From positions 1 through 6,021 of IMG/VR virus record IMGVR_UViG_3300045988_004527: a stretch of 6,021 nucleotides of DNA; one strand, written 5' to 3'. This document shows, piece after piece, positions 1 to 6,021 of this stretch. Position 1 is the stretch's first letter; each line of letters opens with the position of its first letter. The notes under the pieces were generated by a model. That model did no database searches. It saw nothing but the letters and a program-made list of their open reading frames with translations, and was not told the origin of the DNA. A program made the translations under genes and the position numbers. The DNA comes from a virus.

Positions 1-55
1 AATAATCACAACACTATGTGTACAGAGTTGTACAATGAGTTTAAGCGTAGCGAAA
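1..55. repeat. Terminal 55-nt exact duplicate of 5967-6021; circular-genome assembly overlap giving a unit length of 5,966 nt
   Basis: Base-by-base comparison shows 1-55 (aataatcacaacactatgtg...gcgtagcgaaa) is identical to 5967-6021. An ORF reads through the junction without interruption. 55 is a common de Bruijn k-mer length. Confidence 0.9.
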
Positions 56-2868: not shown

Positions 2869-3897
2869 ATGATAGGATCCATAATAGGAGCAGGCATAGG
2901 ACTAGCCGGAAGCATACTAGGTCGAAAACAACAAAACGAAGACCAAAGAGAAATGATGGAGCTTCAAGCGAAACTAAACCAACAACAAGCCCAATACAAT
3001 CAAGGATTAGCAAAAGACATGTGGAATTATACCTCATTTCCAAACCAAGTCAGAAAGATGAAAGCAGCAGGTCTAAATCCGGCACTACTTTACGGAATGG
3101 GAGGACAAGGAGGAAGCACGACAGGAGCAGGTCAAGCAAGTGGGGTAGGACTAAGTGACGCAAAAGGAATGCAAACAGGTATAGCCATCCAAGGAATGGG
3201 ACTAGAACTCGCAAATCTGGCAAGTCAAATAGATTTAAATAAATCGCAAGCCGAAAAAAATAAAGCAGAAGCAGAAAAAACAGCAGGCGTAGATACAGAA
3301 GCACAAAAAGCTACCATTGACAACCTAATAGCGCAGACTTCAAATGAAAAAACAAAAAAAGGTCTCATCTTAGGACAAATCAGAGTTGCAGATGCAGAAG
3401 AGGAACTCAAACGAAATACTGCCGATTGGACTAAAACCAAAGCCGATGAAACACGCTGGAACATCAAGAGCCTACAAAAGGGAATTGATAAACTAACTGA
3501 AGAAATCAACGGAATGAAACTCGACAACGAGTTAAAAGAACGAACAATCGACAATAAAGTAAGAGAAAGCTCGTTAACACTTCAAAACCTGATGGCTGAA
3601 ATATTACTCAAAGGAAGCCAACAAAAAGTTAATGAAGAGCAAGCAAAAGCAATTCCAGCAGAAATCCTACAAGGATGGGAAAAACTTGTTAAAGAAGGAA
3701 AAGCGCTCATTAACCAAAGAGAACAGATGGAAGCCTATGTACAGGACGTAATAAACAGATACGAACTAGGCAAAAAGGGACTAGACATCGAAGAACAGAA
3801 GCTCGTCAAAGACATTGTACTAGGAATGCTTGAAATAGCTTCAAAAGGAGCAGGGGCAGCAATAGGAGCAAAAGTAGGTAAAACAGGTTTTCAATAA
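2869..3897 (+). CDS. VP2: Microviridae DNA pilot / minor capsid protein VP2 (phiX174 H analogue), 342 aa
   Basis: Gly-rich hydrophobic N-terminus MIGSIIGAGIGLAGSILG. The hallmark VP2 motif NQVRKMKAAGLNPALLYG is followed by a Gly-rich linker. A long charged heptad-like helical region (about aa 110-330) is consistent with a coiled-coil tube. A second Gly-rich C-terminal patch KGAGAAIGAKVG is present. Confidence 0.85.
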   Translation: MIGSIIGAGIGLAGSILGRKQQNEDQREMMELQAKLNQQQAQYNQGLAKDMWNYTSFPNQVRKMKAAGLNPALLYGMGGQGGSTTGAGQASGVGLSDAKGMQTGIAIQGMGLELANLASQIDLNKSQAEKNKAEAEKTAGVDTEAQKATIDNLIAQTSNEKTKKGLILGQIRVADAEEELKRNTADWTKTKADETRWNIKSLQKGIDKLTEEINGMKLDNELKERTIDNKVRESSLTLQNLMAEILLKGSQQKVNEEQAKAIPAEILQGWEKLVKEGKALINQREQMEAYVQDVINRYELGKKGLDIEEQKLVKDIVLGMLEIASKGAGAAIGAKVGKTGFQ

Positions 3898-3899
3898 TT

Positions 3900-4898
3900 A
3901 TGTGTCTATATCCTAAACTCATACTAAACCGGAGGTATCTACCAAACAAAAAAAATGGTGGAGTGCCTCCGGCATGTCCAGACGAAAGACTAAGATATGT
4001 AACAGCAGCATGCGGAGACTGTCTGGAATGCAGGCAACAAAAGCAAAGAGCATGGAAAGTTAGAATGAATGAGGAACTAAGACAAGAGCCAAATGCATAT
4101 TTCCTTACACTAACAATTACAGATGAACACTACGCAATATTAAAAAATAAATACAATTTAGAAAATGATAATGATATAGCAACGAAAGCAATAAGATTAT
4201 GTTTAGAAAGAGTACGAAAGCAAACAGGTAAATCCGTAAAACATTGGTTTATCACAGAATTAGGACACGAGAAAACAGAAAGATTGCATCTACACGGGAT
4301 AGTATGGGGACTAGGAAGCGGAGAAAAGATTACAAATAATTGGAAATACGGAATCACATTCACAGGTTTTTTTGTAAATGAAAAAACAATAAATTACATT
4401 ACTAAATATATGCTAAAAGTAGATGTAGACCATAAAAATTTCAGAGGAAAAGTATTATGTTCCGCAGGACTAGGCAAGGGATATACAGAAAGGGCAGATG
4501 CTCAAAACCACAAATACAAAAAGGGTGAAACAAATGAAAGATACAGAACAAGAACAGGTATAAAGCTTAATCTACCAATATATTACAGAAACAAATTATT
4601 TACAGAAGATGAAAGAGAATTAATATTCCTTGATAAAATAGAAAAAGGAATCATTTATGTAATGGGGCAACCTGTACATAGAGATGATGAAGAATATTAT
4701 TTACAACTATTAGAAGAAGGAAGAAAAACAGAACAAAGACTATATGGAGAAAGGAGAAAAGATTGGGAAAAAATACAATATTTAAACAGATTAAGGAGAC
4801 AAAAGAAAAAACAAGACAAAGATTTGCAAGAATTAGAAATGTATTGGGCAATAAATCAGGCAAAAAAATATACATCATTAGACGAAAGTCCATTTTAA
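3900..4898 (+). CDS. VP4: Rolling-circle replication initiation protein VP4 (phiX174 A homologue; HUH endonuclease), 332 aa
   Basis: N-terminal MCLYPK, then the Cys cluster CGDCLECRQQKQRAWKVR. RCR motif 1 is YFLTLTI. The HUH motif is RLHLHGIVW (His codons from 4287). The catalytic Tyr motif is YITKYMLK (Tyr codons 4395-4397 and 4407-4409). Confidence 0.93.
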   Translation: MCLYPKLILNRRYLPNKKNGGVPPACPDERLRYVTAACGDCLECRQQKQRAWKVRMNEELRQEPNAYFLTLTITDEHYAILKNKYNLENDNDIATKAIRLCLERVRKQTGKSVKHWFITELGHEKTERLHLHGIVWGLGSGEKITNNWKYGITFTGFFVNEKTINYITKYMLKVDVDHKNFRGKVLCSAGLGKGYTERADAQNHKYKKGETNERYRTRTGIKLNLPIYYRNKLFTEDERELIFLDKIEKGIIYVMGQPVHRDDEEYYLQLLEEGRKTEQRLYGERRKDWEKIQYLNRLRRQKKKQDKDLQELEMYWAINQAKKYTSLDESPF

Positions 4899-4922
4899 GG
4901 GCTATATTAATAATTATATTTT
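4899..4922 (+). promoter_or_regulatory. AT-rich segment with a phiX174-origin-like core; candidate + strand nick site (ori) for VP4
   Basis: ATATTAATAA (4904-4913) is an exact 10-mer of the phiX174 gene A protein origin CAACTTG/ATATTAATAACACTATAGACCAC as I recall it. The 22-nt AT-only core is clamped by GGGC (left) and GGGCGTCCGGGCGGGC (right). It starts 1 nt after the VP4 stop. Confidence 0.35.
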
Positions 4923-5221
4923 GGGCGTCCGGGCGGGCTTTACGGCTCAAACATATTTCCGCTTCGCTCCAATACTCGCCTTCAATCCCTGACGCACGCA
5001 ACAAAGTTGCTATTAATTTGCGCTCCGCGCAGAATTTAGGGGTATATAGGGAAGGATGGACAGTGAAAGAGTAAAGGACAGTTTCCTAAGGAACAGTTTT
5101 ATATGAGGGCGTGCACCCGGCAAAAGCCGTGGTGTGCGCCTTCGGCGATATCAAGGAGCTAGACGCTAAGGAGGGCTACGCGCCCTCTATTGCTCCATCG
5201 GCGCTCAAACGGCGCGCATCC
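4921..5221 (+). other. GC-rich, hairpin-dense non-coding island; candidate complementary-strand origin, 3' UTR structure or structured ncRNA
   Basis: Hand count gives 161 G+C in 300 nt. No convincing ORF is present. Hairpins found are 4998-5010, 5015-5036, 5105-5143 (17 pairs, 3 of them G-T/U wobbles), 5170-5188 and 5201-5217. Confidence 0.6.
5058..5099 (+). repeat. Three iteron-like direct repeats: GGACAGT (5058-5064), GGACAGT (5076-5082) and GGAACAGT (5090-5097)
   Basis: Read directly. Copies 2 and 3 extend to AAGGACAGTTT and AAGGAACAGTTT. They lie in a purine-rich tract between the two hairpin clusters. Confidence 0.5.
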
Positions 5222-5253
5222 TTACTATGCAGTATGTTAAATAAATGTTAAAA
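5211..5253 (+). promoter_or_regulatory. dif-like / XerD-arm-like motif with a tandem second half-site; candidate attP for host XerCD
   Basis: GTATGTTAAAT (5232-5242) matches the E. coli dif XerD arm TTATGTTAAAT at 10 of 11 positions. GGCGCGCATCC (5211-5221) matches the XerC arm GGTGCGCATAA at 8 of 11. The spacer is 10 nt rather than 6. A second partial arm AAATGTTAAAA lies at 5243-5253. Confidence 0.3.
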
Positions 5254-5265
5254 GTAACAAGAAAA

Positions 5266-5296
5266 TTTGCAGAATCAAAAAAAACACGTATATTTG
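5266..5296 (+). promoter_or_regulatory. Bacteroidetes-type sigma-A promoter: -33 TTTG (5266-5269), 19-nt spacer, -7 TATATTTG (5289-5296)
   Basis: Exact match to the published Bacteroides/Flavobacterium consensus TTTG-N19-TAnnTTTG. It is the only such match I found near a gene start. It lies about 28 nt upstream of the ATG at 5324, which also has an AGGAGG at 5313-5318. Confidence 0.6.
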
Positions 5297-5323
5297 CAAT
5301 GTAATAAAAACAAGGAGGTAAAT

Positions 5324-5904: not shown

Positions 5905-6021
5905 ATGAAAATTACAGGTAATCAATGGGTAGAAATTATCCGAGCAATCTCAACGGCAATCATAGCAATAATCACAACACTATGTGTACAGAGTTGTACA
6001 ATGAGTTTAAGCGTAGCGAAA
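5905..6021 (+). CDS. 5' part of the junction-spanning 67-aa lipoprotein-like ORF (continues at base 56 of the unit, stop 140-142)
   Basis: ATG 5905-5907 lies 2 nt after the previous stop. The N-terminus has a charged n-region, the hydrophobic core AISTAIIAIITTL, then VQSC (a lipobox-like Cys), followed by a polar Asn/Ser/Thr-rich tail. Confidence 0.6.
   Translation, partial: MKITGNQWVEIIRAISTAIIAIITTLCVQSCTMSLSVAK
5967..6021. repeat. Second copy of the 55-nt terminal overlap (identical to 1-55)
   Basis: Exact identity checked by eye. Confidence 0.9.

Follow-up and report, generated by a model that had tools for sequence, protein, structure and literature searches.

The window, as the whole 6,021-nt stretch of DNA analyzed here is called (IMG/VR record IMGVR_UViG_3300045988_004527), comes from a microvirus whose circular genome measures 5,966 nt, as shown by the terminal redundancy of the window (1-55 and 5967-6021), within which positions 10-55 are repeated at 5976-6021. 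The spacer downstream of its Rep gene holds a GC-rich, non-coding, hairpin-forming island composed of two separable modules, part A and part B, that are conserved among microviruses, move between them, can be lost or replaced, and keep a constant orientation relative to the A-rich strand of the genome. We tentatively favor, with somewhat less than even confidence, the interpretation that these modules are exchangeable, host-dependent single-strand (complementary-strand) origin cassettes, probably read on the T-rich strand. A first-pass annotation of the same DNA had proposed such an origin for the island, taken as one unit on a packaged + strand. The element is more than a single hairpin cluster, the origin idea is partly supported, and the + strand is doubtful as the packaged strand.

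The + strand carries all the genes of the window, and the island occupies the spacer between the Rep stop codon (4896-4898) on one side and a Bacteroidetes-type promoter (5266-5296) on the other. Positions 4921-5220 contain 161 G+C in 300 nt (53.7%) compared with 34.5% for the remaining genome, and the 26 CpG dinucleotides of the island give an observed/expected ratio of 1.21 compared with 0.82 elsewhere. No credible open reading frame (ORF) covers the island. The GC richness, the dense CpG and the lack of an ORF are thus as first described. BLAST comparison with phage records shows that the two halves of the island match different sets of microviruses, and the features of the two modules are as follows.

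About 4923-5033, + strand: part A, a mobile GC-rich module with ~80-96% identity over its full length in 49 microvirus contigs
4925-4929 (GCGTC) and 4991-4995 (GACGC), + strand: part A closing helix, which encloses a variable inner region
4998-5010 and 5020-5030, + strand: part A hairpins GCAAC-AAA-GTTGC and GCGC-TCC-GCGC
4898-4907, no strand assigned: copy 1 of an imperfect direct repeat that flanks part A (AGGGCTATAT), overlapping the final base of the Rep stop codon
5038-5047, no strand assigned: copy 2 of the direct repeat (AGGGGTATAT), at the part A/part B junction
About 5040-5225, + strand: part B, found in ~70 distinct microvirus sequences with two 3' subtypes
5043-5110, + strand: part B 5' domain of conserved alignment columns, with a TAYA..GGGA boundary motif and a purine-rich tract of repeated AAGGA(N)CAG units
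5111-5137, + strand: hairpin P_A, with basal stem GTGCACC/GGTGTGC, bulged T5130, distal stem CGGC/GCCG and loop AAAA
5138-5146, + strand: hairpin P_B, GCC-TTC-GGC, which competes with the base of a longer 17-pair hairpin
5146-5161, + strand: invariant unpaired 16-mer CGATATCAAGGAGCTA (consensus CGATATCAAGGNGCTA), unique in the window
5171-5187, + strand: hairpin P_C, GAGGGC-TACGC-GCCCTC, whose stem varies by subtype with pairing kept
5201-5217, + strand: hairpin P_D, GCGC, a 9-nt loop TCAAACGGC and GCGC, in type-1 copies only

Both modules recur at 80-96% nucleotide identity in >100 independent microvirus assemblies, and the carriers include phages with capsid and Rep proteins little or not detectably similar to those of the window. 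Part B identity is 80-90% even where neither VP1 nor Rep has a tblastn match to its counterpart in the window. The consensus 16-mer was the search seed, and its invariance in the ~70 collected sequences therefore follows partly from the search design; no chance match to it is expected in the window, and its ambiguous position is only ever A, T or G. A covariance model built from the part B sequences scores the window at 139.9 bits; four close relatives and the genomes that carry part A only give it no match. A scan of 185,579 species genomes for the part B motif returned just two matches (Acidobacteria and Pseudomonadota), which is approximately the estimated chance number, and a metagenome scan located part A in microvirus contigs and one microvirus prophage (contig L153) and nowhere else. 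The concern that the segment is host chromosomal DNA in a chimeric assembly is cleared by the number of independent assemblies and by the host-genome result. Literature searches returned no description of this element.

The modules are dispensable and replaceable. Four close relatives (L133, which is Dulem virus 201, and L134, L135 and L136) do not carry part B. Other GC-rich hairpin modules fill the same spacer in L134-L136, and Dulem virus 201 has only 28 nt at the position of the island. This loss, together with replacement by other modules, identifies the spacer as a slot for interchangeable structured modules. The view of the island as one unit accordingly gives way to two independently mobile modules that are not universal, even among close relatives. 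A relative with a 98.8% identical Rep (L066) has ...TTTTAAGGGC running directly into ATATAGGGAAGG and is without exactly the segment between the AGGGSTATAT copies, which suggests from sequence comparison that part A may be gained and lost by recombination at the flanking direct repeat. Another relative with a Rep ~99% identical to the window's (L015) retains only the last 42 nt of part A.

The hairpins read from the sequence in the first-pass annotation are all present.

4998-5010, + strand: hairpin GCAAC/AAA/GTTGC
5015-5036, + strand: hairpin AATTTGCGCTCCGCGCAGAATT
4986-4990 (TCCCT) and 5048-5052 (AGGGA), + strand: proposed strands of a closing helix
5105-5143, + strand: 39-nt hairpin of 17 pairs, three of them G.T (5107.5141, 5112.5136 and 5113.5135), and a bulged T5130
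Inside 5170-5188, + strand: hairpin GAGGGC/TACGC/GCCCTC
5201-5217, + strand: hairpin GCGC/9 nt/GCGC

The proposed closing helix bridges two modules that are found separately elsewhere, and since most carriers hold one module only it cannot be a conserved feature. The 17-pair hairpin forms as drawn, but its lower third (GAGGGC/GCCTTC, 5105-5110/5138-5143) competes with the 5138-5146 hairpin, which is favored by covariation. L001 and similar relatives cannot form the 17-pair foot, so the long hairpin is best described as P_A plus an alternative extension.

Folding energies were compared with dinucleotide-shuffled controls. The + strand of the whole island (4900-5260) is more stable than the shuffles (RNA z = -2.61, 0/100; DNA z = -2.51), as the first-pass annotation anticipated, whereas the - strand is not (RNA z = -0.86). 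The excess stability resides in part B (5040-5225). The 5100-5225 segment has z = -4.51 (RNA) and -3.37 (DNA) on the + strand compared with -2.40 and -2.11 on the - strand, and 5040-5150 has an RNA z of -3.84 on the + strand. P_A can also fold on the T-rich (-) strand, where it has a bulged A and a conserved 2x2 internal loop of C.A/A.C.

Covariation supports the part B hairpins. P_A and P_B were analyzed on a model-based alignment of 75 distinct sequences, and together they score 0.254 compared with 0.089 in shuffles (0/500), with 88% of cells paired compared with 28-52% when the partners are slid. P_A has 97.6% of cells paired and both sides change in 7 of its 12 pairs; P_B has 98.7% of cells paired, and its middle pair is C:G in 55 sequences, G:C in 13 and A:U in 7. 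The tandem T.G/G.T in the P_A basal stem at 5112.5136 and 5113.5135 is kept in 69 and 74 of the 75 sequences. Three part B hairpins show compensatory changes, two of which were formally tested. P_C and P_D were counted on type-specific alignments, the covariance model having failed to realign type-1 P_C. The P_C stem takes the subtype forms GGGACG..CGTCC, GGGAGCTT..AAGCTCC and CTAGGGC..GCCCTAG, and in 27 type-1 sequences the outer pair of P_D is G:C in 16 and C:G in 10 while the inner pair is C:G in 11 and T:A in 16. Part A has compensatory changes as well, with CTTT..CAAT against CTAT..CTAT and GCGC/GCGC against GCGT/ACGC. No consistent helix was found in alignments of the 5' third of part B, whose AAGGA(N)CAG units read CTGTCC(T)T on the - strand; part B as a whole has five AAGGA motifs. 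The long-range helices ACCU/AGGU, GCGATA with TATTGC or TGTCGC, and AAGGAT/ATCCTT were rejected: either compensated changes are fewer than uncompensated ones, or the partner segments are already part of covariation-supported local hairpins. A brute-force column-pair covariation screen was too noisy and was left unused. Apart from the two conserved wobbles, the sporadic non-Watson-Crick pairs in the supported helices are 21 A.C and 0 G.T on the + strand. An A.C mismatch on the + strand is a mild G.T wobble on the T-rich (-) strand. The results on the first-pass claim that the fold is specific to the + strand are mixed: the + strand is the more stable one and the tandem wobble is kept on it, but the sporadic mismatches are all of the opposite kind and P_A folds on the T-rich strand too.

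The orientation of the modules follows the composition of the genome and not its genes. Although 10 of the part B carriers and 40 of the part A carriers have the module antisense to all genes, every contig (66/66 for part B, 49/49 for part A, 115/115 in total) has the sense strand of the module on the A-rich strand of the genome. The A/T bias at synonymous sites is reversed between lineages, and antisense and sense carriers thus fit one strand rule. Four-fold degenerate sites were measured in the window and in L016, L025, L038, L046, L064, L073, L079, L100, L115, L122-L161 and L189-L192. The coding strand of the window has A = 0.69 and T = 0.14 at these sites, and its lineage ranges over 0.56-0.69 for A and 0.09-0.22 for T; the coding strand of the antisense-module lineages has T at 0.56-0.74 and A at 0.10-0.22. 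The coding strand T in the calibration set is 0.57 for phiX174, 0.51 for Chp2 and 0.66 for SpV4, and the coding strand of phiMH2K is also A-rich (0.45). Four part B subtypes (L001/L016, L007/L010, L110/L004 and type 2/L073) span both A-rich-coding and T-rich-coding lineages, which indicates several independent transfers that all obey the strand rule. Carriers of either orientation class have the cassette between the end of their last gene and the main promoter. The window has the sense strand of part A downstream of Rep, and phages of the T-rich lineage have the complement of part A between a gene start and a phage-sense promoter that was read by eye. Part A would thus be the complement of a leader in one case and a 3' tail in the other, which is inconsistent with a role embedded in an mRNA.

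The origin interpretation starts with circular single-stranded DNA (ssDNA) entering the cell. The GC-rich hairpins would stay folded while the AT-rich remainder is coated by the host single-strand binding protein, and the folded cluster with its invariant unpaired 16-mer would mark the start of the complementary strand for the host priming machinery, which could be primase, a primosome or RNA polymerase. A signal that needs host factors only could move between unrelated phages with shared hosts, and the cassette could be gained, lost or swapped for other hairpin modules in the same spacer. Its orientation would be fixed relative to the packaged strand and not to the genes, and the strand that is read would probably be the T-rich one, the complement of the + strand of the window. 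A strand-locked signal acting at the DNA level would explain the fixed orientation, the mobility across phages with unrelated proteins, the dispensability and the replacement. It would also explain why both orientation classes place the module in this spacer, why opposite-orientation genomes lack a canonical module-sense promoter, and why part A does not fit an mRNA-embedded role. Of the original proposal, the conserved, structured, non-coding element, apparently tied to one strand in 115 carriers, stands, and the priming function would be its most plausible use.

The identity of the packaged strand is central to this interpretation. The packaged strand of phiX174 is the coding strand, and we take the packaged strand of Chp2 and SpV4 to be the T-rich coding strand. 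The T bias of ssDNA phages has been ascribed to deamination of cytosines while the DNA is single-stranded (PMC3278643). With T-richness as the mark of the packaged strand, packaging would be conventional in the T-rich-coding lineages, and the window lineage would package the - strand, complementary to its mRNAs. The G.T pairs had been taken as a sign that the + strand is packaged, and this is doubtful given that the four-fold A/T bias of the window is reversed relative to phiX174, Chp2 and SpV4. The composition suggests that some microviruses may package the non-coding strand. The fullest version of this idea, possible though on balance we doubt it, is that the window lineage represents negative-sense Microviridae and that the island is a complementary-strand origin cassette, host-specific and horizontally exchanged, which by its orientation tells which strand is in the virion. 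A fixed virion polarity of the cassettes would place them antisense to the genes in the classical T-rich-coding lineages and sense in the A-rich-coding lineage.

The single-strand origins of rolling-circle plasmids (ssoA, ssoT, ssoU and ssoW) are the closest comparison. They are non-coding, strongly structured elements of 150-300 nt with one functional orientation relative to the displaced strand, and they need host RNA polymerase or primase and not the plasmid Rep. They are dispensable and interchangeable cassettes across unrelated replicons, and one replicon may carry two. The island shares their modularity, horizontal exchange, dispensability and strand lock, but there is no sequence relationship, and the island has Bacteroidetes hosts and a viral replicon. 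The ssoA CS-6 hexamer TAGCGT is present on the - strand of the island (the complement of ACGCTA at 5163-5168) in type-1 copies only, where it lies in an unpaired linker and not in a terminal loop; a given 6-mer is expected in ~400 nt about 1 time in 10. In place of the single functional orientation of ssoA, the island has a constant orientation relative to compositional strand asymmetry (115/115), the strand that is single-stranded in vivo being a matter of inference.

The phiX174 n' (PriA) site, the G4 primase origin and the M13 minus origin are likewise intergenic hairpin clusters, located on the packaged strand, that stay folded under single-strand binding protein and recruit host priming enzymes. 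The G4 template has hairpins 5' of an unstructured CTG start site, and the - strand of the island has hairpins followed by a 3' pyrimidine tract with CTGTCC repeats. Unlike the island, these elements are fixed and lineage-specific and are not mobile cassettes across phages with unrelated proteins. The stems of the island also show no Bacteroidetes counterpart (-33 TTTG/-7 TAnnTTTG) of an M13-type promoter mimic: TAnnTTTG is absent from both strands of the part B core in the window and in most of the 23 genomes scanned. In the window, the core has its nearest boxes at 5289 (+) and, on the antisense strand, at -198, which falls inside part A. Intergenic hairpins in reekeekee- and roodoodooviruses are conserved above the surrounding genome, have compensatory substitutions and have been tentatively linked to negative-strand initiation (PMC9865509). 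Those are single hairpins of 13-64 nt, each within one clade, whereas the island has two multi-hairpin modules of ~110 and ~185 nt that are exchanged between distant lineages in both orientations to the genes.

Several results weigh against the origin interpretation. The strand lock represents perhaps 5-6 independent transfers, for which the chance is roughly 0.02-0.06 and, the carriers being related, not 2^-115. The + strand folds better than the - strand (z = -4.5 compared with -2.4 for 5100-5225) and carries the conserved tandem G.U, a typical RNA feature. Part A alone (4921-5036) folds no better than shuffles on either strand (z from -0.8 to +0.1). Mutation bias by itself predicts a mismatch ratio of ~6.6:1, and the observed 21:0 is only marginally beyond this (P ~0.05). 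The interpretation would require the window lineage to package the mRNA-complementary strand, which is unprecedented for Microviridae and which we propose from synonymous-site composition. No match to a known ssi (single-strand initiation) or sso consensus was established, and we infer both the priming role and the host factor.

The main and serious rival, which we regard as possible but rather doubtful, is a structured non-coding RNA in the module sense (+ strand), either a self-contained small RNA gene or a structured 3' tail of the Rep transcript. With similar doubt, the tandem G.U and the 16-mer could be protein- or RNA-binding sites, for example in host-factor manipulation or counter-defence. 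The + strand RNA fold far below the shuffles and better than the - strand (5100-5225 and 5040-5150) is what such an RNA would show, as is a tandem U.G/G.U that persists despite mutation pressure toward A-U, and both orientations relative to the genes suit a self-contained gene. Part A of the T-rich lineage is preceded in its own sense by a near-consensus TTG-N20-TtTATTTG and followed by GGGAAAATACTTTTCCC and TTTT, although near-consensus promoter matches found by eye are too frequent in AT-rich DNA to count, and a hairpin and T-run follow part B in L025 and L046. The terminator-like hairpin is exchanged for one without a T-run in three part A copies, and a canonical TAnnTTTG box is found upstream on the module sense strand in 0 of the 12 opposite-orientation part B genomes. 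The 21 A.C to 0 G.U sporadic mismatches are the reverse of the usual pattern for selected RNA helices, and the constant orientation relative to genome strand asymmetry is left unexplained. The Rfam comparison suggested in the first-pass annotation gained nothing, a search of the whole window at E up to 10 returning no family in the island. Rfam 15 on 4890-5300 gave RsmW as its best score at 15.5 bits (gathering threshold 52, E = 2.4) and U6 at 12.6 bits, both below threshold, and ARAGORN detected no tRNA or tmRNA. Phage and plasmid non-coding RNAs such as the ColE1 RNA II primer and CsrB/RsmW-type sponges resemble the island in having multi-hairpin folds with conserved unpaired motifs, but the weak RsmW match reflects GGA-in-loop patterns, and the island differs from them in having no significant Rfam family and no promoter in opposite-orientation genomes. 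By definition, a primer of the RNA II kind would be the complement of the packaged strand.

A 3' end signal of the genome-length transcript, acting as a terminator, insulator or 3' stabilizer before the main promoter, is improbable. The window and all same-orientation genomes do place the island between Rep and the promoter, and stable hairpins could block 3' exonucleases. The module is nevertheless antisense to the transcripts in the 10 part B and 40 part A genomes noted above, where there is a separate bidirectional terminator, and Dulem virus 201 manages with its 28 nt. The sole terminator-scan match in the island is a weak 5-pair stem (4998-5010) with the tail TATTAATTTG, and shuffles give as many, so the terminator alternative raised in the first-pass annotation finds no signal above background.

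Selfish or recombinational DNA is highly improbable, whether as miniature elements moved through ssDNA by an IS200/IS605-type transposase or as Xer attachment sites. The modules are mobile, patchy and hairpin-rich, part A lies between the copies of its imperfect 10-nt direct repeat and L066 lacks it precisely, and transposition through ssDNA would likewise impose one orientation with respect to the single-stranded form. In favor of the attachment-site version, dif-like sites serve for the integration of Bacteroidetes microviruses (PMC3091885). A host-mobilized palindrome-associated or miniature inverted-repeat transposable element (PATE/MITE) was rejected because multiple host-chromosome copies are expected and the 185,579 species genomes have two chance-level matches to the part B motif; part A occurs only in microvirus contigs and the one prophage. 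An Xer/dif attP was rejected since the junction repeats of L153 lie elsewhere than part A, the att core TAATGATTATTCCC being in the promoter spacer ~3 kb away, and a dif-like sequence at 5210-5241 has a 10-nt and not a 6-nt spacer. Moreover, that 5% of a 6-kb genome is kept 80-96% identical points to selection.

The least probable reading, that part B is the viral-strand origin and the 16-mer the Rep nick site (G/ATAT), with cassette inversion flipping the packaged strand, draws on the resemblance of the invariant unpaired CGATATC to the phiX174 nick region (CTTG/ATATTAAT) and the comparable pC194 nick region and would explain the strand lock by a cassette with both origins, but it was rejected on distribution, as presence does not track Rep: part B is common to phages without tblastn-detectable Rep similarity, relatives with ~50% identical Rep do not carry it, L133 and L135 have no GATATC anywhere, and no part B motif is common to all genomes examined.

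The remaining features of the window place the island in its genomic setting, and several small ORFs are also among the + strand genes.

394-2343, + strand: capsid gene
2869-3897, + strand: pilot protein gene
3900-4898, + strand: Rep gene, with stop codon TAA at 4896-4898
5234-5252, + strand: pair of ATGTTAAA repeats spaced 11 nt apart, downstream of the island, upstream of the promoter and outside the mobile modules
5266-5296, + strand: promoter TTTG-N19-TATATTTG for the small ORFs and the capsid gene, at the downstream edge of the spacer of the island

The promoter assignment applies a Bacteroidetes consensus that we presume from general knowledge of Bacteroides promoters. The + strand of the window has only three TAnnTTTG boxes, one of which is that of the promoter (5289-5296), and same-orientation genomes keep the promoter +123 to +250 from the 16-mer. 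Both the ATGTTAAA repeats and the promoter are conserved in relatives with other spacer modules, as exemplified by the repeats in mar45 (GTATGTTAAAACAATGTTAAAT). The repeats are a candidate regulator site, probably double-stranded DNA bound by a protein. A 102-amino-acid ORF and the pilot gene are separated by a second non-coding region (2667-2868), in which several short palindromes accompany a run of G, GGGTGGAGGGTGGGAG (2743-2758). At the matching position the four annotated relatives, Dulem virus 201 among them, have an intergenic gap of 160-190 nt, and this region is a candidate that may hold a more universal cis signal.

The contig L153 (14.8 kb) contains a microvirus prophage (3760-10480) flanked by gyrA, TPR, Usp and BatD genes, which identify the host as a Bacteroidetes bacterium. 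Its att core TAATGATTATTCCC is repeated at ~3848-3870 and 10460-10480, and part A lies inside the prophage at 7384-7480. The repeat sits between the -33 and -7 elements of a phage promoter, and integration would therefore split the main promoter. The position of the att core agrees with the dif-like integration described in PMC3091885.

Three further observations concern part B. The spacer of L136 (bajarodmic virus 670) has at 4690-4745 a segment GGTGCTAGAACGGGACGTTGCCCGTTC...CTATTC that resembles the part B GGTGCTAGACGCTAAGG-hairpin-CTATTGC; it is without CGATATC and is not detected by the part B covariance model, and it may be a distant third subtype. A metagenome contig of 10,976 nt (L166) has two different part B copies at 3077-3242 and 9031-9197 and probably joins two related microviruses in a chimeric or concatemeric assembly. 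The record IMGVR_UViG_3300008060_000094 (L027) has at 7053-9310 a CRISPR (clustered regularly interspaced short palindromic repeats) array in which ~29 repeats of 47 nt alternate with 30-nt spacers. Among these spacers, GCCTCTGGCGATATCAAGGTGCTAACGCTC is an exact match to the part B core as it occurs in L046 and covers the 16-mer, which indicates that hosts target the conserved part B module.

To our knowledge, the start of the complementary strand is unknown for most microviruses outside phiX174 and G4, and we know of no replication signal defined for the abundant Bacteroidetes gut phages. The island provides a concrete candidate signal in the form of a 185-nt module with an invariant 16-mer and covariation-supported hairpins. 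Its distribution means that non-coding signals pass between microvirus lineages without recognizable common proteins. The strand lock and the reversed synonymous A/T bias together raise the question of which strand these phages package, and an unconventional packaged strand, if true, would change a textbook property of the Microviridae.

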